This document shows positions 2,354 to 53,254 of a stretch of 64,000 nucleotides of DNA, piece after piece; position 1 is the stretch's first letter; each line of letters opens with the position of its first letter. Under the pieces are notes generated by a model. It was not told where the DNA came from. It did no database searches and saw only the letters and a program-made list of their open reading frames with translations. Source of the DNA: a bacterium. Its GTDB lineage: Bacteria > Omnitrophota > Gorgyraeia > Duberdicusellales > 4484-171. The position numbers were made by a program, and so were the translations under genes. The stretch lies in assembly GCA_021796115.1 (NCBI GenBank), contig JAJYOP010000002.1:6842-70841 (forward strand), in the 5' to 3' direction.

Positions 2354-3532
2354 TTATTTTTCGTACTTTATATCGTCAAGGTAGAAGACAATTCCTTCAG
2401 GATCATTGACGTCGATATTCGTTGCCCAGCAGAAACCGCCTATTATATAGGAGAGGTCTTTGCCTTTTAAATCGATTGTGTACTGTGTCCAATCCTTTGA
2501 TAATTGAACCGGGCCGATACTTACGCTGTCGGAATCGATATATTCGCCGCTTGAAATTCCGCCAACCTTAAACTCATTAATAACTTCACCGCCCTTGTCC
2601 CCCCTTGCCCAGAAGGTAAGTTTTGTTGCGCCTTGAAGGTTATAGCCGGCATTAGGAACATTACCCCAGTTATTTGCTGGCTGCTGCCAATACATGCCTG
2701 CCCAGCGCGTTCCAGAATTGTTTTTATACTCAATTCTAATGCAGCTGTCTCCGCTAAAGGGCAAATTTTTCCATTTCGTATCCAATTTTAAATCTTTTGC
2801 CGCGGTTGCCGGCATCCATCCACTGGGAACAAAATGGTTATCTAACGAACCTGCGTCAGCATAAACGTAAAAGGGAAAATTAATCTTTGCCTCTTCTTTT
2901 TTCAATGTTGGATCATAAGTATAATGGATATCGTCAAGATAAATTGTTTCTCCATCCGGGCCTACCTGGTCGGCATTGAGAATGATGCATAAACCGCCAT
3001 TGATATAGTGTAAATCCTTGTCAACAAGGTTTACGGAATATTCCTGCCAATCTTTGGTAAGTTTTATTGGCCCGTATTCAACGCTTGTTGAATCTGGAAA
3101 AGCAACTGCGTCTCCGCTTGGAGTCTTGGTGATCCCGCCGACTTTTACTAAAGTTATAACTTCACCACCATTTTTACCTTTTGCTTTAAAAACTAATTTG
3201 TTAAATCCAGTCAGGTCAACGCCGGTATCCTTTGTACCCCAGTTATTTTGCGATGATTGCCAGTAAATACCGGTCCAGCCGTTGCCCTGGCTCTTTTTTG
3301 CGCTGTATTCGATTTTTATATCCGTTGAGCCGCTTGCCGGCGATTGTGTGTCCTGATCGGTAAATTTAAGATCGCCGTAATCGCCCATCCAGCCGCTAGG
3401 AATAAAATGATTTGAAGTCGCACCTTTATCGGTATAAACATCAAATACTTTTTCGGCTTTCTTTTCCTCGGCTGCCATTGAGATGCCACACACCATTAAA
3501 GCCACCAGAAGTAACCCTAAAACTTTACGCAT
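2354..3532 (-). CDS. Secreted protein with two tandem carbohydrate-binding-module-like beta-sandwich repeats
   Basis: Signal peptide present. Internal duplication: NHFIPSGWMGD...IKIEY...GWTGIYWQ...NNWG...GGEVITLVKVGGI versus NHFVPSGWMP...IRIEY...RWAGMYWQ...NNWG...GGEVINEFKVGGI. SD AAGGAGGG precedes ATG 3532. Confidence 0.5.
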   Translation of the reverse strand: MRKVLGLLLVALMVCGISMAAEEKKAEKVFDVYTDKGATSNHFIPSGWMGDYGDLKFTDQDTQSPASGSTDIKIEYSAKKSQGNGWTGIYWQSSQNNWGTKDTGVDLTGFNKLVFKAKGKNGGEVITLVKVGGITKTPSGDAVAFPDSTSVEYGPIKLTKDWQEYSVNLVDKDLHYINGGLCIILNADQVGPDGETIYLDDIHYTYDPTLKKEEAKINFPFYVYADAGSLDNHFVPSGWMPATAAKDLKLDTKWKNLPFSGDSCIRIEYKNNSGTRWAGMYWQQPANNWGNVPNAGYNLQGATKLTFWARGDKGGEVINEFKVGGISSGEYIDSDSVSIGPVQLSKDWTQYTIDLKGKDLSYIIGGFCWATNIDVNDPEGIVFYLDDIKYEK

Positions 3533-3563
3533 TGCTTTCCCTCCTTTTGTTGACACAAACTAC

Positions 3564-3622
3564 CACGAATCAGACCATTCTTCCATTCGTGAATATTTGT
3601 TTTTAATTCGCGGTCATTCATG
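3564..3622. repeat. CACGAAT/ATTCGTG heptamer words forming a hairpin
   Basis: CACGAAT at 3564-3570 pairs with ATTCGTG at 3585-3591. Related words ATTCGCG (3606-3612) and ATTCATG (3616-3622) follow. Confidence 0.8.
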
Positions 3623-3626
3623 TTTA

Positions 3627-6841: not shown

Positions 6842-6955
6842 TAAACTCTAAATCCTAAATAAACCACAAACACAAAACTCTAAACTCAAAACGTTTTGAG
6901 TTTAGAGTTTTAATTTTGAGTTTGTTTATAATTTAGGATTTCGAGTTTAGAGTTT
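6842..6955. repeat. Compound inverted repeat of AAACTCTAAA words with a perfect 38-nt palindrome (6874-6911)
   Basis: Arms AAAACTCTAAACTCAAAAC|GTTTTGAGTTTAGAGTTTT. Outer imperfect arms at 6842-6870 and 6917-6955 carry the same word. Confidence 0.9.
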
Positions 6956-6964
6956 CTCATGGTT

Positions 6965-7867: not shown

Positions 7868-7902
7868 TTTTGTTGAACCTAAATCGTTTATTGATTGCGT
7901 CT

Positions 7903-7936
7903 CACGTATCAGTTAATACATGTTACCTGATACGTG
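7903..7936 (-). promoter_or_regulatory. Intercistronic 10-bp hairpin between the binding-protein and permease genes
   Basis: CACGTATCAG (7903-7912) and CTGATACGTG (7927-7936) are perfect complements separated by a 14-nt loop. Confidence 0.6.
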
Positions 7937-7948
7937 ATACATATCCAT

Positions 7949-9247: not shown

Positions 9248-9386
9248 TATCCCCCTCCTTAAAATATATAAATAGTCCACAGAAAAGATGTATACTTTAT
9301 CATATTTTTTGTTTGTGCGCAAATAATTTATTGCGGCTTTGCAAGGCGGTTTTTGCCAGCACGAATTATGAATTTAACCTACTAAG

Positions 9387-9465
9387 GTTACACAGGTCAC
9401 GTTAAATGCAACCTTCGTAACTTTCATAATATCCGTAACTTTCGGAACCCGGGATTTATCCGTGC
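9387..9465. repeat. 9-nt-periodic GTTAC/GTAAC pentamer array
   Basis: GTTAC at 9387 and GTCAC at 9396. Then GCAAC 9408, GTAAC 9417, ATAAT 9426, GTAAC 9435, GGAAC 9444 and GATTT 9453, each on a 9-nt step. Contains ATTTATCCGTG at 9454-9464. Confidence 0.85.
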
Positions 9466-10447: not shown

Positions 10448-13400
10448 ATGGGTTCAAAAAGATTCCAGATATTTTGGCGGTTATATTGGGTTAGAATCCT
10501 TATCATTACCATTTCAATAATTCTTTTTATATCCTTAATATTCTTAGTCATTGCCAGCATTAATTCTTATGTGCACATGGAATCTTTCTATAAGGAACAA
10601 ATGAAAGCCAGCATGGGCGTTCAGTTGTATTTGTATATTGTTGGAGGCATAATCACTGGAATAGTTTATGTTTATTTATTTGTGACAATGATGTATCGCG
10701 GAGGCGATGTAGGCGAGTTTAGCAAGATGCAGACAAAAGCAATTAAAGGCCAAGATATCGGCATAGCCTGGAGAGATGTAATTGGCATGAAAGAGGCAAA
10801 ACGCGAAGCTTGGGAAGTTGTAGAATTGATTCGGGAAAGAGCGCGCCTGGAAAAGATGCGTGGGCAGGTTATAAAAGGTGTGGTATTCATTGGCGCTCCT
10901 GGTGTAGGTAAGACATACCTTGCGAAAGCAATTGCTACCGAATGCGGAATGCCTTTTCTCTCCGTTCTCGGGAGCGAACTTGAAGGCGTATTTGTCGGAT
11001 TAGGAGCGCAAAAAATACGTAAATTATTCAAAAACGCGCGGAATCTAGCCGAGCTTAACGGCGGATGCATTATTTTTATTGACGAGATTGATTCAGTGGC
11101 CAGACCTCGCCGGGCTGGCGTTGGGTTGGGTGGCGCGGAAAGTTACAATATGGCAGTAAACCAGTTGCTTGCGGAAATCGATGGTTTGAGACAAAAAGAA
11201 TACAACATTGTTGTAATTGCTGCAACAAACGTTGCTGAGGAAGAGTTGGATCCAGCATTGATGCGCGCCGGAAGATTTGACCGTAAAATCTATATTGGCT
11301 TGCCGAGCCTTGATGACCGGCAGGATTTATTTAATTTCTATCTTAACAAAGTGCAATATGACCGGCAAAGTGTGAGAGTCGATCGCCTGGCGCGTCTCAC
11401 CGTTGGCAATACCCCGGCTGATGTTGCCAATATAGTAAAAGAAGGTTCGCTTATCGCGGCGCGTAAGAAGAAATACGTAATTGCTATGTCTGACCTTGAA
11501 GAAGCACGGGAAAGAATTGCTTTGGGCATAAAGCTTAATGTTAAAATGAGTGAAAAGGACAAAAAGATTGCCGCATACCATGAAGCCGGCCACGTTCTTG
11601 TTACCTATCTTTTAGTGCCGACGAAGGATGTATTTAAGGCAACTATCATTCCGCGCAAAGGTTTAGGCGGTGCAAGCTGGGTGGTAAAAAAAGAAGAGGC
11701 TTTTATCCCTGATAAAGAAGACCTTTTGGGAGAAATAAAAATACTTTTAAGCGGTTATTGCGCGGAAAAAGTAAAATTCGGCATTACCTCCTCCGGCGTC
11801 AGCGATGATTTGAAACGGGCAAATGAGCTCGCCGAAAAAATGGTTACCTTATGGGGCATGGGCACCTCTGGCGCAACTTCTGTGACGAATAATCCATTTA
11901 GCCAGCACGATATTGCCGAGAGAGATAAAGATAGCATAATTACCAATTGTCTTAATGAAGTAAATGAGGTAATGAGGAAAGAGCTGCCGATTTTCGAAAA
12001 GCTGGCCACGGAACTTTTAGCCAAGGAAGAGCTGGATTATGATAGTATCGAAGAAATATTTAAAAGTTTCGGAAAGACCCGTTTGACAGGAGTAAAAATA
12101 GAAAAAAAGGAAAAAGAAATCGGATGGGATGATGTTATTGGAATGGAAGAAACGAAAGAAGAAGCTAAAGAAATTGTCAGCCTGATAAAAGATAGAACGC
12201 ATGTGCAACAAGTTGGCGGAAGGATTATCCGCGGGCTGCTTATGTTTGGCCCTCCGGGTTGCGGCAAAACCTATCTTGCCAGCGCTATGGCAAATGAAGC
12301 CGGCGTGCCGTTTTTAAGCCGTGTTGGCTCAGAATTTGTCGAAATGTATGTTGGGGTAGGCGCAAGCCGCATCCGGCATCTTTTCCAGGAAGCCAAGGAG
12401 TTGGCTCTCTCTAAAGGCGGTTGCGTCATTTTTATCGATGAAATTGACGCTTTAGGCGGTAAACGCGGCGACGCCACAAGCGGCGGAGACCGGGAATATA
12501 ACCAGACACTCAATCAGTTGCTTGCCGAAATGGACAGTTTTAAAGAAAAAGAAGAACAATACAATATCGTCATTATCGGCGCAACTAACATGAAAGAAGA
12601 ATTTATGGATCCTGCCCTGCTTCGTCCGGGCCGGTTTGATAGAAAAATATACGTTGATTTACCGACTTTTGAAGACCGCAAAAAGCTTTTTACTTATTAT
12701 TTAGATAAAGTTAAATATAATTCTGCAGATATCGATCCGCAAAAATTTGCCGGCATAACCCATGGCTGGTCTCCTGCTGATATTGCCAATCTAACCAGGG
12801 AAGCAGCGCTTATCACTGTAAGAAACAAAAAGGACACAATTGGCATTAGAGAAATGGATGAAGCAAGGGAAAGAATTAAAATGGGCCTTAAGCGAAAATT
12901 AACCCAGTCAAAAGATGTACTCAAAGCAACTGCTTACCATGAAGCCGGCCACTGCGTATTGCAATATTATAGTAAGATGTCCTTTCCGTTTAAGGTTTCG
13001 ATTGCTCCACGCACGCGCACTTTGGGATTGGCCTGGGGTGCATTTGAAGGCGATACTCCAAGCGGCGACAAGGAAGAACTTTTGGGCCATATTCGCGTAT
13101 CCTTGGGCGGCTACGTAGCCGAAAAGCTAAAATTAGGGACATCTACCGAGGGTGTAACCCAGGACTTTAAAAATGCCTTAAGAACAGCTCATTTTATGGT
13201 TTGGGCGGTAGGCATGGGTAAATCCGGGCTCATTGGAAACTTTGAGGAAGCACTCTATTTTACCAATCGGCAGCAACAACCGTTTTTATCGGAAGAAATG
13301 AAGGCAAGGTTAGATAATGAAACGCAGGAAATCTTACAACAATGCCTTAAAGAAGCCGAAGTAATTTTAGAACGTGAATCAGAAGTGCTTGAGCGTATCG

Positions 13401-13513
13401 CAGAAGCACTTATTGCGAAGGAAGATTTGATTTATCCGGAAATAAAGGAACTTTTTGACAAGTATACAAAAGAAAAACCTGCACACCGCTCCATAGACAC
13501 AAAAGAAGTTTAA
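10448..13513 (+). CDS. ftsH: Tandem-module FtsH-like ATP-dependent zinc metalloprotease (TM-TM-AAA-M41-AAA-M41)
   Basis: Two TM helices. Walker A appears twice (GAPGVGKT, GPPGCGKT), Walker B twice (FIDEID), SRH twice (DPAL..GRFDR) and HEAGH twice. Confidence 0.85.
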   Translation: MGSKRFQIFWRLYWVRILIITISIILFISLIFLVIASINSYVHMESFYKEQMKASMGVQLYLYIVGGIITGIVYVYLFVTMMYRGGDVGEFSKMQTKAIKGQDIGIAWRDVIGMKEAKREAWEVVELIRERARLEKMRGQVIKGVVFIGAPGVGKTYLAKAIATECGMPFLSVLGSELEGVFVGLGAQKIRKLFKNARNLAELNGGCIIFIDEIDSVARPRRAGVGLGGAESYNMAVNQLLAEIDGLRQKEYNIVVIAATNVAEEELDPALMRAGRFDRKIYIGLPSLDDRQDLFNFYLNKVQYDRQSVRVDRLARLTVGNTPADVANIVKEGSLIAARKKKYVIAMSDLEEARERIALGIKLNVKMSEKDKKIAAYHEAGHVLVTYLLVPTKDVFKATIIPRKGLGGASWVVKKEEAFIPDKEDLLGEIKILLSGYCAEKVKFGITSSGVSDDLKRANELAEKMVTLWGMGTSGATSVTNNPFSQHDIAERDKDSIITNCLNEVNEVMRKELPIFEKLATELLAKEELDYDSIEEIFKSFGKTRLTGVKIEKKEKEIGWDDVIGMEETKEEAKEIVSLIKDRTHVQQVGGRIIRGLLMFGPPGCGKTYLASAMANEAGVPFLSRVGSEFVEMYVGVGASRIRHLFQEAKELALSKGGCVIFIDEIDALGGKRGDATSGGDREYNQTLNQLLAEMDSFKEKEEQYNIVIIGATNMKEEFMDPALLRPGRFDRKIYVDLPTFEDRKKLFTYYLDKVKYNSADIDPQKFAGITHGWSPADIANLTREAALITVRNKKDTIGIREMDEARERIKMGLKRKLTQSKDVLKATAYHEAGHCVLQYYSKMSFPFKVSIAPRTRTLGLAWGAFEGDTPSGDKEELLGHIRVSLGGYVAEKLKLGTSTEGVTQDFKNALRTAHFMVWAVGMGKSGLIGNFEEALYFTNRQQQPFLSEEMKARLDNETQEILQQCLKEAEVILERESEVLERIAEALIAKEDLIYPEIKELFDKYTKEKPAHRSIDTKEV

Positions 13514-15606: not shown

Positions 15607-16871
15607 TTCATCATTTGCCTATCCTCTTTATTTTCTTTCAGGAAAAAATACGAAGAAAACATGGTTATTATACTTATGGCAATAATTATTGTAAAGGGAG
15701 TAAATTTTTCTGCCAAATAGGAAGCGGTAAACATAAAAACAATGAATGTCAGATGTATGATTATTTCAAGCGAGCTAAAAATTCTGCCCCAGAATTTATT
15801 TTCACTCTCATTATGGATGAGTGTATTTATAGCAATCGCGATTGGCGAGGCAATTAATCCGATAATAAAACAAGAAAAAAACGCAAATAATTTATGGGGA
15901 TACATTTTAAGCAGCGTAACGAATGCGCATAAATATAGGGAAGAAAAAAATAATGAAACGCTGGTAACTTTTTTAATGGAAAATTTTGCTCCGATTCTGC
16001 CATAAAAAAGCGAACCAAAAAACAAACCAGCTCCGCAGCCGACAGCAAGCCATCCTAAATCGAAGGTTACGGTTTTTAGTGTTTTTTGTATGAAGACGAT
16101 AAAAATTGTATAAAGCGAACCGATGAGCGCAAACAAAAGGAATTGAACCTTTGCGGCATAGCGGGTTTCTTTTGAGCTCAAAATATATTTCAAGCCTTCT
16201 TTTGTTTCATATAGGAAAGAATTTTTAGCTTTTATAATCGCGTCTTTACCAAGGTTGATAATATCTTTTGGGTTAAATTTTGCGCGTTTGTCAATCCGCA
16301 CTAGGCTTATCGCCAGGCAGGAAATTAAAAACGTAAGCGAATCGATAAAAAAGGCCCACTCTACGCCCCACTTTTGTACCATCATACCCCCGAAACCAAA
16401 ACCTAAAACCGCAGCTATGGTTGCGGTAATGGAAATCAATGAATTGGCAATGAAAAAATTTTTCTTTTCAACTAAAGAAGGTATCAAGGCCATTTTGGCG
16501 GGAATAAAAAATCTGCCGACGCAAAAAGATAAAAATATCAATACATAAGCAACCGGCATCGAACGAAAACGCACGGCAGCAAAGGGAACGAGAAATATAA
16601 AAATGCCTCGCAGGAGGTCGCTTATATACATAGTTTGACGCTTATCCCAGCGGTCGACATAAACTCCGGATATGGGCGAAATAAGAAATACGGGTATTAT
16701 CGCAAGGCTGAACATTTTAGCCAAGCCAAGCGAAGAGCCTGGCGCAACTTTATAAACTAAACCGATAAGCGCCATTTGCGTGAGCCTGTCGCCGAATTGA
16801 GACACAATCTGGCTCATCCAGACAAGGAAAAAGTTACGGTTGCGTAATACTTTGAAATAATTTGTTTCCAT
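15588..16871 (-). CDS. MFS transporter
   Basis: About 12 TM segments. N-terminus METNYFKVLRNRNFFLVWMSQIVSQFGDRL is typical of MFS exporters. Start moved to ATG 16871 because the longer ORF reads through the ACGGAT repeat. Confidence 0.8.
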   Translation of the reverse strand: METNYFKVLRNRNFFLVWMSQIVSQFGDRLTQMALIGLVYKVAPGSSLGLAKMFSLAIIPVFLISPISGVYVDRWDKRQTMYISDLLRGIFIFLVPFAAVRFRSMPVAYVLIFLSFCVGRFFIPAKMALIPSLVEKKNFFIANSLISITATIAAVLGFGFGGMMVQKWGVEWAFFIDSLTFLISCLAISLVRIDKRAKFNPKDIINLGKDAIIKAKNSFLYETKEGLKYILSSKETRYAAKVQFLLFALIGSLYTIFIVFIQKTLKTVTFDLGWLAVGCGAGLFFGSLFYGRIGAKFSIKKVTSVSLFFSSLYLCAFVTLLKMYPHKLFAFFSCFIIGLIASPIAIAINTLIHNESENKFWGRIFSSLEIIIHLTFIVFMFTASYLAEKFTPFTIIIAISIITMFSSYFFLKENKEDRQMMNPALPK

Positions 16872-16881
16872 GATGTTGTAA

Positions 16882-16957
16882 ACGGATGTCACGGATTGTT
16901 GCGGATTCAGGCGGATGTATTTATCCGTGGCATCCTCAACCACCCGTTTGCATCCGT
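16882..16957. repeat. ACGGAT/ATCCGT word array between tRNA-Thr and the MFS gene
   Basis: (A/G)CGGAT occurs at 16882, 16891, 16901 and 16911. ATCCGT occurs at 16923 and 16952. Contains ATTTATCCGTG at 16919-16929. Confidence 0.85.
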
Positions 16958-16964
16958 GTTCACG

Positions 16965-17037
16965 AGCCCACGAGAGGGGTCGAACCTCCGACCTGCGCTT
17001 TACGAAAGCGCTGCTCTGCCAACTGAGCTACGTGGGC
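16965..17037 (-). tRNA. tRNA-Thr (anticodon CGU)
   Basis: Cloverleaf read by hand: acceptor GCCCACG/CGTGGGC, D-arm GCTC..GAGC, anticodon stem GCGCT/AGCGC with loop TTCGTAA, T-arm GGAGG-TTCGACC-CCTCT. No encoded CCA. Confidence 0.9.
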
Positions 17038-17143
17038 GAAAAATCGTTATGTAGTTTGTTATTGGTAGTTCGTAGTTTGTTTAAATAAGACCGGCATCCC
17101 TCATCCACCCAATTACAAACTACCAACTATTCTCTTCTTGTAG

Positions 17144-17349: not shown

Positions 17350-18453
17350 ATGAAAATAAAAACGCCTTATTATTTTATTCACGAAAAAAAAATATTGCAA
17401 AATTTAAAAAAATTTGATTATCTCCGAAAAAATTCAGGCGCAAAAATCATACTAGCCTTGAAATGCTTTTCTACCTGGTCAGTTTTCCCATTAATGAAGA
17501 AATATATGGACGGCACGACTTCAAGCTCATTATATGAAGCACGTTTAGGCCGGGAAAAGTTTGGCAAAGAAGTTCATGCTTACGGTGTGGCTTTTTCTAA
17601 AGAAGAAATAGGCGAAATAAAAAAATATGCCGATAAGGTAATTTTTAATTCCCTTTCTCAATTGAAGATGTTTTATCGGGAAGTTAAAAATTTAAAAATC
17701 GGTATACGGATAAATCCGAAAATCAGTTATTCGCGCTTTACGCTTGCTGATCCGGCAAGAAAATATTCCCGGCTTGGGGCAGTTGATAAAAAAGCCATTC
17801 TGGGTATAGCAAATCTTATCAGCGGAGCAATGTTTCACTTTAATTGCGAGAACGATAATTTTGAGAATTTTTCGCAAAACTTAGATACAATTGATAGAAA
17901 CTTTGGCAATATTTTAAAAAAGTTAAAATGGGTCAGCCTTGGCGGTGGGATTTATTTTACTAAAGCCGGTTATCCACTGGAAAAGTTTGCAAAAAAAATA
18001 AAGCAGTTTTCCGATAAGTTCGGCATCGAAGTATATCTTGAACCAGGAGAGTCAGCTATAACGCAATCTGCAGAGCTTGTAACCAAGGTGCTTGATGTCG
18101 TGCATAATGAAGCAGATGTTGCGATAGTTGATTCCTCTACTGAAGCCCATATGCTTGATTTACTTACTTATCGCTTGACTGCAAAAATTGACGAAAAATT
18201 TTTAGGAAAGTTTAAATATATACTAGCTGGAAGATCGTGCCTTGCCGGAGATATATTCGGTACTTTTAATTTTAAATCACGGCTTAAGGCCGGAAGCATA
18301 ATACGGATTAAAGATGTTGCAGGCTATACCATGGTTAAGAAAAATTGGTTTAACGGTCTTCAGATGCCTTCTATAGTTATAAAAAGATTAAATGGCGCAA
18401 TAGAAGTTATGCGTCATTTTGGATATAGAGATTTTAAAAATAGCTTGTCATAA
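17350..18453 (+). CDS. nspC: Carboxynorspermidine/carboxyspermidine decarboxylase
   Basis: MKIKTPYYFIHEKKILQNL start. Alanine-racemase-fold PLP decarboxylase pattern (LALKCFS, SLGGG, EPGE.., CLAGD) at the typical length. Confidence 0.8.
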   Translation: MKIKTPYYFIHEKKILQNLKKFDYLRKNSGAKIILALKCFSTWSVFPLMKKYMDGTTSSSLYEARLGREKFGKEVHAYGVAFSKEEIGEIKKYADKVIFNSLSQLKMFYREVKNLKIGIRINPKISYSRFTLADPARKYSRLGAVDKKAILGIANLISGAMFHFNCENDNFENFSQNLDTIDRNFGNILKKLKWVSLGGGIYFTKAGYPLEKFAKKIKQFSDKFGIEVYLEPGESAITQSAELVTKVLDVVHNEADVAIVDSSTEAHMLDLLTYRLTAKIDEKFLGKFKYILAGRSCLAGDIFGTFNFKSRLKAGSIIRIKDVAGYTMVKKNWFNGLQMPSIVIKRLNGAIEVMRHFGYRDFKNSLS

Positions 18454-18457
18454 ATAC

Positions 18458-18552
18458 GTTACAAATGTTACGAAAGTTATGTAGGTTACATTTAAATCAA
18501 TAACGTTTAATGTAACTTTTGCAACCCTCATAACATCCGTAACCTTCGTAAC
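18458..18552. repeat. 9-nt-periodic GTTAC (x4) / GTAAC (x5) inverted pentamer array
   Basis: GTTAC-type words at 18458, 18467, 18476 (GTTAT) and 18485. GTAAC-type words at 18512, 18521 (GCAAC), 18530 (ATAAC), 18539 and 18548. All steps are exactly 9 nt. Confidence 0.9.
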
Positions 18553-18578
18553 GTTATTAATTAGGAGGATGAAATACG

Positions 18579-22530: not shown

Positions 22531-22541
22531 TTTATATAGAG

Positions 22542-22573
22542 GTTACGAAAGTTGTGTAGGTTACGAAGGTTAC
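22542..22573. repeat. 9-nt-periodic GTTAC array (four direct units)
   Basis: GTTAC 22542, GTTGT 22551, GTTAC 22560, GTTAC 22569. Positions 22542-22564 match 18467-18489 at 22 of 23 nt. Confidence 0.9.
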
Positions 22574-22607
22574 AATTTAATCCATTATTTTTGCAATATC
22601 AGCAACA

Positions 22608-23705
22608 TTATTGTTGCCTGCAAATATTAAAAAATATACCTAGCAGCATGAAGCTTACTAATAAATGCGTGCCGCCATAGCTTACAAAAAGAAGCGGAAC
22701 TCCCACAACCGGCAGGATGCCGAGAGTCATTCCGATATTGATAAAGACATGCAAAAAGAAAAGGAAGGCGGTGCCTAAAATGACAAACCTGGCGAAATTA
22801 TCTTTTTGATATTTTGCAACACGGCTGATGTTATTGATAACCGTTATATAGATTAAAAAAAGAAAGAAACAACCAATAAACCCCCACTCCTCAGCGATAA
22901 CGGTAAAGATAAAATCGGTATGCCTTTCCGGAAGGAAATTAAATTGATTTTGCGTCCCGGAAAGAAAACCCTTGCCGAAAAACTTTCCTGAACCTATTGC
23001 TATTTTTGATTGTATTATAGTATAGCCTGCGCCTAGCGGCTCGGCGTTAGGATTCAAAAAAACAATGAGCCGCTTTTTCTGATAATCCTTCATGTGATTC
23101 CAGACAAAAGGCGAAATTAACAGCGCAGCGATTATCATTGCCACGAAATATCTTTTTTTATTCGCGGAAGCAAAGCCCATCAGGAAAAATAAAAAAATAA
23201 GAATTAAAGCAGTGCCTAAATCCGGCTGCTTGGCGATCAATATGACATTGAACATTACCAGAGTAAAAGGGACCAGAGCACCCTTTATAAACCCTTTATT
23301 TACATCATGTACAAAGAATCTAGCCAAAAGAAAAATCGTTATCAATTTTGACAACTCCGAAGGCTGGAAATTAAATCCCCCAACGTTAAGCCAGCGTTGC
23401 GCACCAAGTGCACGCCTGCCAAATAAATCAACCGCAAGCAACAATAGTATGTTTATTACGTAAAAGACATACGCAAAATCGAACCAAATCCGATAATTTA
23501 CCAGCGAAAAGATAATTAAAATTACCCAGGCGATAACGACCCAGATTATTTCTTTGTAAAATATGTCCAGGTCTTCCATTTTACCTGCCTGATGCAAACT
23601 GCTATATATTGATGCCAAGCTTATTGCGGTTAAAATTAAGAGGCAGATGGCTACGATTTTACGGGGAGTATAATTCAATTGTTTGTTAAATATGGCGCTT
23701 ATCAT
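22608..23705 (-). CDS. rodA: Rod shape-determining SEDS protein RodA
   Basis: FtsW/RodA/SpoVE family TM pattern (NFQPSELSKL, PDLGTALI, PERHTDFIF). Immediately downstream of PBP2. Confidence 0.9.
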   Translation of the reverse strand: MISAIFNKQLNYTPRKIVAICLLILTAISLASIYSSLHQAGKMEDLDIFYKEIIWVVIAWVILIIFSLVNYRIWFDFAYVFYVINILLLLAVDLFGRRALGAQRWLNVGGFNFQPSELSKLITIFLLARFFVHDVNKGFIKGALVPFTLVMFNVILIAKQPDLGTALILIFLFFLMGFASANKKRYFVAMIIAALLISPFVWNHMKDYQKKRLIVFLNPNAEPLGAGYTIIQSKIAIGSGKFFGKGFLSGTQNQFNFLPERHTDFIFTVIAEEWGFIGCFFLFLIYITVINNISRVAKYQKDNFARFVILGTAFLFFLHVFINIGMTLGILPVVGVPLLFVSYGGTHLLVSFMLLGIFFNICRQQ

Positions 23706-30880: not shown

Positions 30881-30937
30881 TTCTCCTCCTTTAATGAGCA
30901 CAGCATTTTTTAGCCGCAAGAGGGCGAAAAAATACTA

Positions 30938-31108
30938 GTGCGAATTACCCCCGAACGATGAGACTGTCTTTTTGCCTGCGTAAGCGTGCAAAAAGACTTA
31001 GTCGAATCGTCCCAAGCAAAGCTTGGGACGAAGTAATGGGGTTGCTCACAGATATTCACAGATTGGAAATCGCGAATGAGTGCAAATATTTATCTGTGAA
31101 CATCTGTG
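30938..31108. repeat. Composite intercistronic repeat block of four hairpins plus GTCGAAT-type linkers
   Basis: GCGAATTACCCCCGAACGA at 30940-30958. 10-bp hairpin 30966-30975/30988-30997. TTAGTCGAATCGTCCCAAGCAAAGCTTGGGACGAAGTAATGGGG at 30998-31041. CACAGAT x2 / ATCTGTG x2 stem at 31047-31108. Confidence 0.85.
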
Positions 31109-31115
31109 TGATTTT

Positions 31116-32069: not shown

Positions 32070-32135
32070 TTAAGGCCACCTAATTTGTGTTCTGCGTAAC
32101 ACGTATCACATGCGACATGCTACGTGCTACATGTT

Positions 32136-33431: not shown

Positions 33432-33489
33432 ACGAATTCCCACGCATGGAAAAATAGATTTATCCGTGGTAATTCGTGTTTAATTCGTG
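33432..33489. repeat. ATCCGTG/ATTCGTG word array with a 13-bp imperfect inverted repeat
   Basis: ACGAATTCCCACG (33432-33444) versus CGTGGTAATTCGT (33465-33477), complementary at 12 of 13 positions. Words at 33462, 33472 and 33483. ATTTATCCGTG at 33458-33468. Confidence 0.85.
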
Positions 33490-33500
33490 GATATTTGTGT

Positions 33501-36479: not shown

Positions 36480-36551
36480 CCCCTCACTTCGTCCCAAACA
36501 AAGCTTGGGGCAATTCGACTAAATTATTTTTCAGATTTCCTATCTGAAAAA
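36480..36551. repeat. Second copy (inverted) of the GTCGAAT/CCCAAGC hairpin repeat, plus a 10-bp AU-rich hairpin
   Basis: The reverse complement of 36480-36522 is TTAGTCGAATTGCCCCAAGCTTTGTTTGGGACGAAGTGAGGGG, aligning to 30998-31041. Hairpin TTTTTCAGAT-ttcct-ATCTGAAAAA at 36527-36551. Confidence 0.85.
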
Positions 36552-53079: not shown

Positions 53080-53254
53080 ATATTTAAAGCCAAATCGGCA
53101 GTCTGTAGTTGATAGTTAATAGTTTGTTTAAATGAAACGACGTGTTTTTAATCTCCCTCCGCAGCCCCCCCTAGGGTTTTAGGGTCTTCCCTAAAAGGTA
53201 TAGGAAGCCCTGCCCCCTCCAGGGTTAGGCCTCTTCTTTATAAAGGTAATTAGG

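Follow-up and report, generated by a model that had tools for sequence, protein, structure and literature searches.

Several described systems offer points of comparison for the repeat family treated here. Bacterial MITEs (miniature inverted-repeat transposable elements) are exemplified by Correia/NEMIS, RUP and ERIC. Arms composed of tandem sub-repeats occur in the foldback elements of Drosophila and in the cyanobacterial STRR heptamer arrays. Among the origins of replicons that use superfamily 3 (SF3) helicases are site II of simian virus 40 (SV40), with GAGGC pentamers in inverted pairs, the ori of staphylococcal pathogenicity islands and the ori/crr of P4. A repetitive extragenic palindromic (REP) sequence is defined as a self-palindromic unit of 20–40 bp (stem 5–13 bp, loop 2–20 nt) with an unpaired GTAG or CGTC tag at one end and an association with RAYT proteins (PMC3733652), and the GTAG-tagged REPs and REPINs of Proteobacteria are mobilised by RAYT tyrosine transposases (PMC3733652, PMC3116915). 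The stretch analysed here, 64,000 nt of contig JAJYOP010000002.1 (assembly GCA_021796115.1, positions 6,842 to 70,841 of the forward strand; called the window below) from a bacterium of the phylum Omnitrophota, carries three arrays of the pentamer GTTAC on a strict 9-nt step, forward in one arm and inverted in the other. Literature searches turned up nothing of relevance on GTTAC repeats, Omnitrophota repeats or STRR-type arrays.

The three window loci, one of them intact and two decayed, are copies of a single element family, as opposed to freely arranged words. A full copy of the element is about 105 nt long and consists of TTTAG, five GTTAC+GRAD modules, an A+T-rich centre of 21–23 nt, five inverted GTTAC+GRAD modules and CTAAA. 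The terminal TTTAG and CTAAA pair with each other, and the element is an imperfect inverted repeat throughout, with about 45 nt per arm and no open reading frame (ORF). In the A arm GTTAC is followed by GAAG, GGAT, GAAA (GGGAA) or GRAK, and the five inverted modules of the B arm have fixed spacers of their own, CTTC, CTGC or CTAC, YTTC and ATTC. The arms can thus be distinguished at fixed positions, and the centre is conserved as ATTAAAACCTCGTGATTTAWT. It is because of this conserved centre and the two distinguishable arms that the copies are assigned to a single homologous family, the alignment of which has a mean column identity of 81%. When one genome of each species was scanned for the pattern, only eight places were returned, three of which are metagenome-assembled genomes (MAGs) of Candidatus Omnitrophota with the identical design, and a metagenome scan added at least eight loci. 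The arrays are therefore not restricted to the window, as the original prediction had expected of a real motif. Copies in different genomes are 82–92% identical, which is no lower than the identity among copies on one contig. The original prediction overlooked the shared family of about 105 nt, its lack in close relatives and the hairpins of other words that accompany it.

Locus 1 (18453–18557, minus strand) is the sole near-complete copy in the window, and on the minus strand it reads as A arm, centre and inverted B arm. In plus-strand coordinates, direct reading and a period scan give four forward nonamer modules of the B-type arm at 18458–18489 (GTTAC at 18458, GTTAC at 18467, GTTAT at 18476 and GTTAC at 18485; spacers AAAT, GAAA and GTAG). 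These are followed by the centre ATTTAAATCAATAACGTTTAAT at 18490–18511, in direct reading 22 nt with an internal small palindrome and only 3 G/C bases. The A-type arm appears as its complement, in five inverted modules at 18512–18552 on the plus strand (GTAAC at 18512, GCAAC at 18521, ATAAC at 18530, GTAAC at 18539 and GTAAC at 18548; spacers GAAG, GGAT, GAGG and AAAA; direct reading and period scan). All steps within each arm are 9 nt, and direct reading thus agrees with the four forward and five inverted pentamers, the 22-nt spacer and the strict step described earlier. With a covariance model built from nine copies of the family (R1), the minus strand of locus 1 reaches 97.5 bits (E=6e-22) and its plus strand 68.4 bits. 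The neighbouring genes encode an nspC-like decarboxylase (stop 18453) and a carboxynorspermidine-dehydrogenase-like protein (start 18579). Homologues of the dehydrogenase are 82–87% identical, and the named ones all belong to Omnitrophota/Omnitrophica, including Ca. Velamenicoccus archaeovorus.

A chance origin of the arrays is ruled out by a shuffle test and the period scan. The pattern GTTACN4GTTAC with at most one mismatch has 15 matches in the window against 1.51 expected, a number reached by none of 100 shuffles. Phased runs of three or more units occur at period 9 only when periods 6–13 are scanned, and shuffled sequences yield 0.015 such runs. Within the window the predicted excess of GTTAC phasing over shuffled sequence is thus found. 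The relatedness of the loci is also visible in longer words. The 14-mer GTTACGAAGGTTAC occurs exactly at 22560–22573 (plus strand) and 18539–18552 (minus strand), one-mismatch copies exist, among them 9408–9421, and loci 1 and 3 agree at 22 of the 23 positions of a shared 23-mer; the shared 14-mer and the 22-of-23 agreement are exactly as had been claimed.

Locus 2 (9373–9448, minus strand; R1 26.9 bits, E=0.0003) is a decayed copy with a five-unit A-type arm at 9408–9448, a 7-nt centre and two units of the other arm at 9387–9400. The two forward units and the 9-nt step that had been described for it were recovered, but it has five clear inverted units (9408, 9417, 9426, 9435 and 9444) and not six or more. 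It sits 17 nt past the stop (9466) of a purU-like gene and about 125 nt ahead of the called start (9247) of a solute-binding-protein gene. Locus 3 (22537–22629, minus strand; R1 27.2 bits, E=0.0002) was known for four forward units, which form an intact B-type arm at 22542–22573; the earlier description missed a degenerate inverted arm at 22593–22624, which keeps the 9-nt step (GCAAT 22593, GCAAC 22602, TTGTT 22611, GCAAA 22620) and overlaps the final codons at the 3′ end of rodA. Two variants are also present. A mini-element at 2296–2353, composed of GGCT-ACGGAT, GTC-ACGGAT, TAAT and the inverse units, fills the entire 58-nt spacer between two co-directional genes, gives 20.9 bits with R1 (E=0.009) and has nonamers akin to the GTTACGGAT module. 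A second ACGGAT-type array at about 16870–16940 has the 17-mer AACGGATGTCACGGATT in common with it and matches R1 weakly (E about 5). This brings the tally to three copies and two variants in 64 kb. The window loci are flanked by polyamine, cell-wall and transport genes.

Comparison of the copies shows what is conserved in the element. In a 13-sequence alignment in which the full hairpin was drawn, and which has limited power, 80.5% of the pairing cells are paired as against 82.0% after the 3′ partners are shuffled among sequences. For the spacers the corresponding values are 67.3% and 71.9%, and one double-sided change is found where 4.2 are expected. All modules have a mismatch at the fourth position of the spacer, and this mismatch is conserved; RNAalifold favours a register that is slipped by one module. 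The arms pair because both match one word consensus. These results support the conclusion that evolution conserves words, phase, arm differences and mismatches, not base pairs. A hairpin RNA maintained through covariation was rejected as an explanation, its score lying below the shuffled expectation. The covariance check proposed with the original prediction thus gave conservation of words only, with no covariation of the kind ordinary terminator hairpins would have; the proposed conservation of word and phase stands, whereas recognition by a protein or ribonucleoprotein is, as before, something that we infer.

The placement of the element is uniform. All 16 family members examined lie in short spacers between co-directional genes at 0–30 nt from the upstream stop codon. 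The same holds for the three window loci, which bears out their reported position. The next start codon is usually close to the element, and some copies supply or overlap the stop codon. Orientation with respect to transcription is variable, with the better-folding strand antisense to the flanking genes in 11 of these cases and sense in five. As a gauge of orientation with respect to replication, GC skew in the short loci is inseparable from coding-strand bias.

Filled and empty sites show that this lineage, compared with close relatives, acquired the element at loci 1 and 3. The spacer between nspC and the dehydrogenase gene is 125 nt long here, but 11–36 nt and free of the element in five relatives (L409–L413). 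The site of locus 3, a junction between a radical-SAM gene and rodA, is likewise empty in L411 and L413, where the genes are 30 nt apart or overlap. R1 found no family member over 101 kb of those relatives in which locus 1 is empty, and the element is limited to some Omnitrophota lineages. Relatives of similar G+C content have compact, weakly folding spacers, whereas the window and other element-bearing contigs have many strongly folding ones.

Once present, the element is shown to gain and lose whole nonamers and to decay to one-armed remnants. At two pairs of orthologous sites it was kept, with an identity of about 85% against about 75% for the flanks. The orthologous copies L102 and L139 are an 18-nt (two-unit) indel apart, and the arms of L102 are unequal, with five and three units. 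Within one arm of the L089 copy sits a G+C-rich hairpin of 29 nt, an insertion that the orthologous copy in L121 does not have. G+C-rich hairpins of about 24–30 nt, for example GCCTCGCCTTGCTCGGCAAGGCGGGC, were seen inside or beside an arm of the element at L089 ~2735–2765 (element 2729–2835), within L093 2499–2638 and next to L103 1046–1113. Hairpins such as GCCTCGCCTTGCTCGGCAAGGCGGGC look like an even smaller mobile hairpin nested in the GTTAC element.

These properties can be set against the systems mentioned at the outset. Like REP sequences, bacterial interspersed mosaic elements (BIMEs) and REPINs, the family consists of short non-coding palindromic repeats that are dispersed over spacers, in most cases closely downstream of ORFs, and lie within transcription units. 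It shares with them an insertion in either orientation, an abundance that depends on lineage, a hairpin unit of REPIN size (about 100 nt) and long persistence at some sites. The suggested REP/BIME analogy holds as far as dispersal, location after stop codons, both orientations and filled and empty sites are concerned. It fails for the building plan, because there is no self-palindromic unit of 20–40 bp: the arms are direct arrays of GTTAC+4 in tandem 9-nt modules, and only the whole element of 95–105 nt folds. An unpaired GTAG or CGTC tag is also missing, GTAG being found nowhere but in one internal B-arm spacer, and no RAYT (an IS200/IS605-type Y1 transposase) was found in about 80 kb. With bacterial MITEs the family has in common a small size, the lack of coding capacity, inverted-repeat ends, filled and empty sites among relatives, insertion beside or overlapping gene 3′ ends and co-transcription. 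It differs in that the entire element is an inverted repeat of reiterated pentamer words, a target-site duplication is not visible and a parent insertion sequence is not known. Drosophila foldback elements and STRR arrays resemble it in the short tandem units of variable number in the arms and in fold-back potential, but hosts and unit sequences are unrelated, and the building principle alone is in common, with no homology implied.

A further resemblance is to the iteron origins of SF3-helicase replicons, in which two sets of a short word face each other around an A+T-rich centre. In viral contigs (L160–L380) GTTAC arms followed by GTAAC arms at 9-nt spacing were found at no fewer than 120 loci, at least 65 of them outside long open frames, and the swapped arrangement at 118 loci (61 outside). 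Two control words of the same composition gave 13 loci (7 outside) and 15 loci (3 outside), and the GTTAC design gave 43 loci at 8-nt and 29 loci at 10-nt spacing. A first, degenerate viral scan had returned mostly simple tandem 9-mers. Among the loci listed, 55 of 120 viral and 36 of 120 metagenome matches to the pattern lie in long open frames. Many of these coding matches, which make up about 40–45% of the viral GTTAC loci, are collagen-like Gly-Val-Thr repeats of 9 nt. Such repeats mimic forward and inverted arrays where GTT and GTA valine codons are mixed (L048, L088, L092, L109, L148, L150 and many of L160–L380). A coding repeat was discarded as the origin of the window arrays, which lie outside ORFs. 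Coding loci were taken out before the comparison with the control words, and the GTTAC excess persists after their removal; non-coding GTTAC inverted arrays are about 10–20 times commoner in viral contigs than arrays of control words.

Clustering of the genes next to the non-coding viral arrays gave VapE-like proteins (PF05272) at 34 loci and D5/P4-type proteins (D5_N, DUF5906, Pox_D5) at 14; both kinds of gene end at the array, and a DUF3631 P-loop protein is also recurrent. A match to a VapE-, D5/P4- or DUF3631-type helicase was obtained for 52 of 221 viral loci, and in 37 of these the array is at most 300 nt from the 3′ end of the gene. In these helicase-linked arrays the centre between the arms has a G+C content of 0.38 compared with 0.51 for the locus. 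By analogy with the SF3-helicase origins named at the outset, those of SV40, the staphylococcal pathogenicity islands and P4, the viral arrays are probably iteron origins of replication. The window copies share with the arrays beside VapE, D5/P4 and DUF3631 genes the word GTTAC and the phase of about 9 nt. Unlike iteron origins, however, they adjoin no initiator gene, number at least 3–4 per 64 kb and lie between housekeeping genes, and unlike the viral arrays they follow a family consensus that is absent from the viral collection in its exact form.

A satellite- or prophage-like cluster was seen on the contig of the window itself, about 4.3–9.4 kb beyond the window start (L414 15206–20260). 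It encodes a DUF5659 protein, a 468-aa P-loop protein that is a distant DUF3631 relative, a small terminase, a tyrosine integrase and a large terminase. The gene for the 468-aa protein is directly followed by a periodic TTGTA/TACAA hairpin array (16880–16990), a layout that mirrors the viral pairing of helicase and GTTAC array with a different word. A second, larger class of GTTAC arrays was met in metagenome contigs of 0.52–0.65 G+C (L040–L159), with units GTTACAAGR or GTTACATGR at period 8–9 and a G+C-rich centre. They occur at many loci, their outer units decay to GTTAAAAG, and they have no Rfam match. They too lie in short spacers, 23 of them between tandem genes, six between convergent and one between divergent genes.

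In view of the above, we consider it about an even chance that the arrays are a lineage-restricted, non-autonomous mobile palindromic element, similar to a MITE or REPIN, the arms of which are rows of protein-recognition words. This is the best-supported reading, and on it unit slippage and decay shape the individual copies. We infer that the element is moved by a protein which recognises the GTTAC modules and assembles on both facing arms. Each arm would then be a row of four to five binding sites for a GTTAC-reading domain, and the two rows would face one another over an easily melted centre. Oligomers of the protein could form head-to-head on this DNA, whether it is duplex or an extruded hairpin, and could copy the element or move it in trans, after which slippage would alter the number of units. 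The candidate enzymes include, alongside a transposase, an initiator-type helicase or nuclease, because viral arrays of like architecture are found downstream of SF3 replicative-helicase genes. Being part of transcription units, the element also places a long imperfect hairpin in the mRNA; this hairpin is probably a by-product and not the element's reason for being.

A number of observations weigh against such a mobile element. The window copies are the most diverged of the family, at 66–72% identity, and give no sign that the element moved recently here. That orthologous sites keep the element, with an identity above that of the neighbouring spacer DNA, could instead signal a host function. 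No consistent target-site duplication was found at the flanks of ten copies or in the comparison of filled and empty sites, the flanks being A+T-rich and too diverged for a clear reading. Pfam annotation of the window and about 16 kb of flanks (about 80 kb together) revealed no transposase, RAYT or cognate helicase, and the copies counted in this genome come from within these 80 kb. The exact family (B-arm) consensus has no match in the viral contigs, so that no master copy is known. Finally, the presence of hairpins of many other words in the same genomes hints at a shaping process that is independent of the word.

The alternative that survives best, although we regard it as doubtful, is that the arrays bind a host factor and serve the cell at the level of DNA. 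On this view, 9-bp-phased GTTAC would be the site on which a chromosomal protein polymerises, for instance one that is nucleoid-associated, segregation-related or of the roadblock type; the role would be what preserves the arrays, and spread of the element would be secondary. The near invariance of pentamer and phase with no covariation is in line with such a role. The preservation at two orthologous sites above the level of the surrounding spacer DNA, the closeness of copies from different genomes to one consensus and the strong over-representation of GTTAC arrays elsewhere also agree with it, as does the second class in 0.52–0.65 G+C contigs, which likewise occupies short spacers. However, the five close relatives that lack the element at the same sites, with none in 101 kb, indicate that it is dispensable. 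Decayed one-armed copies persist, a candidate protein was not found, and one sequence-specific factor cannot explain the co-occurring hairpins that have the same architecture but unrelated words.

The viral arrays allow a broader proposal, which we think unlikely. GTTAC nonamer arrays could be a cross-phylum iteron code for SF3-type initiators (VapE, D5/P4 and DUF3631), and the chromosomal copies in some Omnitrophota, as well as their analogues in higher-G+C soil bacteria, would be orphan initiator-binding arrays. These could be the footprints of an undescribed replicative hairpin element or decoy origins of the host. In the decoy variant, initiators brought in by phages and satellites would be titrated by the chromosomal arrays, a host defence that works like plasmid incompatibility.

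A role as a cis-acting RNA structure appears quite improbable. Some REP elements set the relative expression of neighbouring genes at the RNA level, and the GTTAC element, through its long hairpin in the polycistronic transcript, could similarly tune the genes around it by blocking 3′ exonucleases, by terminating transcription in part or by offering RNase III a processing site. It folds strongly: locus 1 gives −26.6 kcal/mol (z=−5.0) for the plus (sense) strand and −40.3 kcal/mol (z=−7.0) for the minus (antisense) strand, the better-folding strand gaining from G-U pairs. The position is also suitable, since in co-directional gene pairs the element always comes after a stop codon and ahead of the ribosome-binding site that follows, and canonical terminator-like sites are not enriched in the window (23 versus 22.5 in shuffles), so that other structures might fill their role. 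Against this, compensatory changes are absent and mismatches are conserved. The orientation is not fixed, the weaker-folding strand being the sense strand in 11 of 16 copies. Over 53 co-directional spacers there is no strand bias either, 27 of them folding better as the sense strand and 26 as the antisense strand, and a G-U wobble bias on the sense strand was not found. Retained copies such as L102 have unequal arms (5 vs 3 units), and the same operons exist in relatives without the element.

More specific RNA functions were examined and dropped. An intrinsic terminator was rejected for want of a G+C-rich stem, a U-tract and enrichment: the stems are A+T-rich, no U-tract follows the window arrays and the terminator scan does not list them, which upholds the earlier view that they are not simple terminators. 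A known RNA family was excluded at both gathering and permissive thresholds; Rfam returned tRNAs only at the former and, at permissive E-values, nothing beyond sub-threshold matches to hairpins of miRNA precursors. The idea, based on the SELEX consensus, that the A arm carries GGA sites of the CsrA type was also discarded, the GGA-bearing strand being mostly antisense and expected to be base-paired.

The window and the other element-bearing Omnitrophota contigs have many further spacer hairpins, with arms of tandem 7–11-nt units of other words. These words are CACGAAT, GAGTTTA, GATAC, CACAGAT, CATGCTA, TTCGTG, TCAGTC, GATGCTA, GTAGTTT and AAATCCA, and also ACGGAT and TAGTT. Examples in the window are at 3557–3626, 6842–6964, 7868–7948, 30920–31115, 32070–32135 and 33444–33500, and on other contigs at L108 1797–1855 and 2712–2776, L039 6043–6116 and L128 5881–5963; in a 4-kb operon of L108 every spacer contains one. 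The relatives L409 and L411–L413, which have a similar G+C content and no GTTAC element, are also without such strongly folding spacers. Some of the other-word hairpins recur across loci and genomes. That all these palindromes, the GTTAC arrays included, are mutational by-products, grown in spacers by slippage of 7–10-nt units and template switching between arms with neither a mobile element nor a binding protein, is very unlikely: the many periodic hairpins of unrelated words and the whole-unit indels between orthologous copies would fit, but a sequence of about 105 nt recurs at unrelated loci and genomes with 82–92% identity, arm-specific spacers and a conserved centre, GTTAC exceeds words of the same composition about 10–20-fold, and dispersal and conservation across genomes are already partly seen for the TAGTTTGTTTAAA and GATACGTGATACAT word families. 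Slippage may still be the source of the unit turnover and of some other-word arrays.

Several of these hairpins form groups of their own. A second dispersed family has (G)TAGTT units of 7 nt that end in TAGTTTGTTTAAA and was seen in the window at 17040–17090 and 53095–53135 and in another Omnitrophota MAG (L039 6043–6116). A third has 7-nt units GTTACCT, GATACGT or GATACAT in the swapped arrangement, the GTAAC arm preceding the GTTAC arm; it occurs in the window at 7900–7945 and 32080–32110, in L089 at about 2970–3025 and in L121 downstream of a tRNA gene, and is common to other Omnitrophota contigs. A small repeat around the hairpin CCCAAGC-AAA-GCTTGGG, with flanks GTCGAAT..GACGAAGT, is present in at least three spacers and in both orientations (window ~30985–31030 and 36490–36530, L414 ~11110–11150). 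Outside the window the same genome has further periodic arrays of CCGGATA-type and ATCCGC-type units with a step of about 9–11 nt (L414 12431–12764 and L416 4035–4232). Among the window's genes, a plus-strand gene at 10448–13513 encodes an FtsH-like protein of 1021 aa, about 1.5 times the usual FtsH length, in which two AAA modules precede the M41 peptidase domain.

For the uncultured phylum Omnitrophota our literature search found no previously described dispersed repeat family, and the known bacterial palindromic repeats gain a member of unusual design, its arms being composed of nonamer words. It is also a lineage marker, which tells genomes whose spacers are full of hairpins from close relatives in which the spacers are compact. 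With more than 100 viral arrays of linked architecture, many of them at the 3′ ends of replicative-helicase genes, a GTTAC-binding domain becomes a concrete biochemical candidate. Should such initiators indeed read the chromosomal copies, this would be relevant to the competition of satellites, phages and hosts for replication factors.

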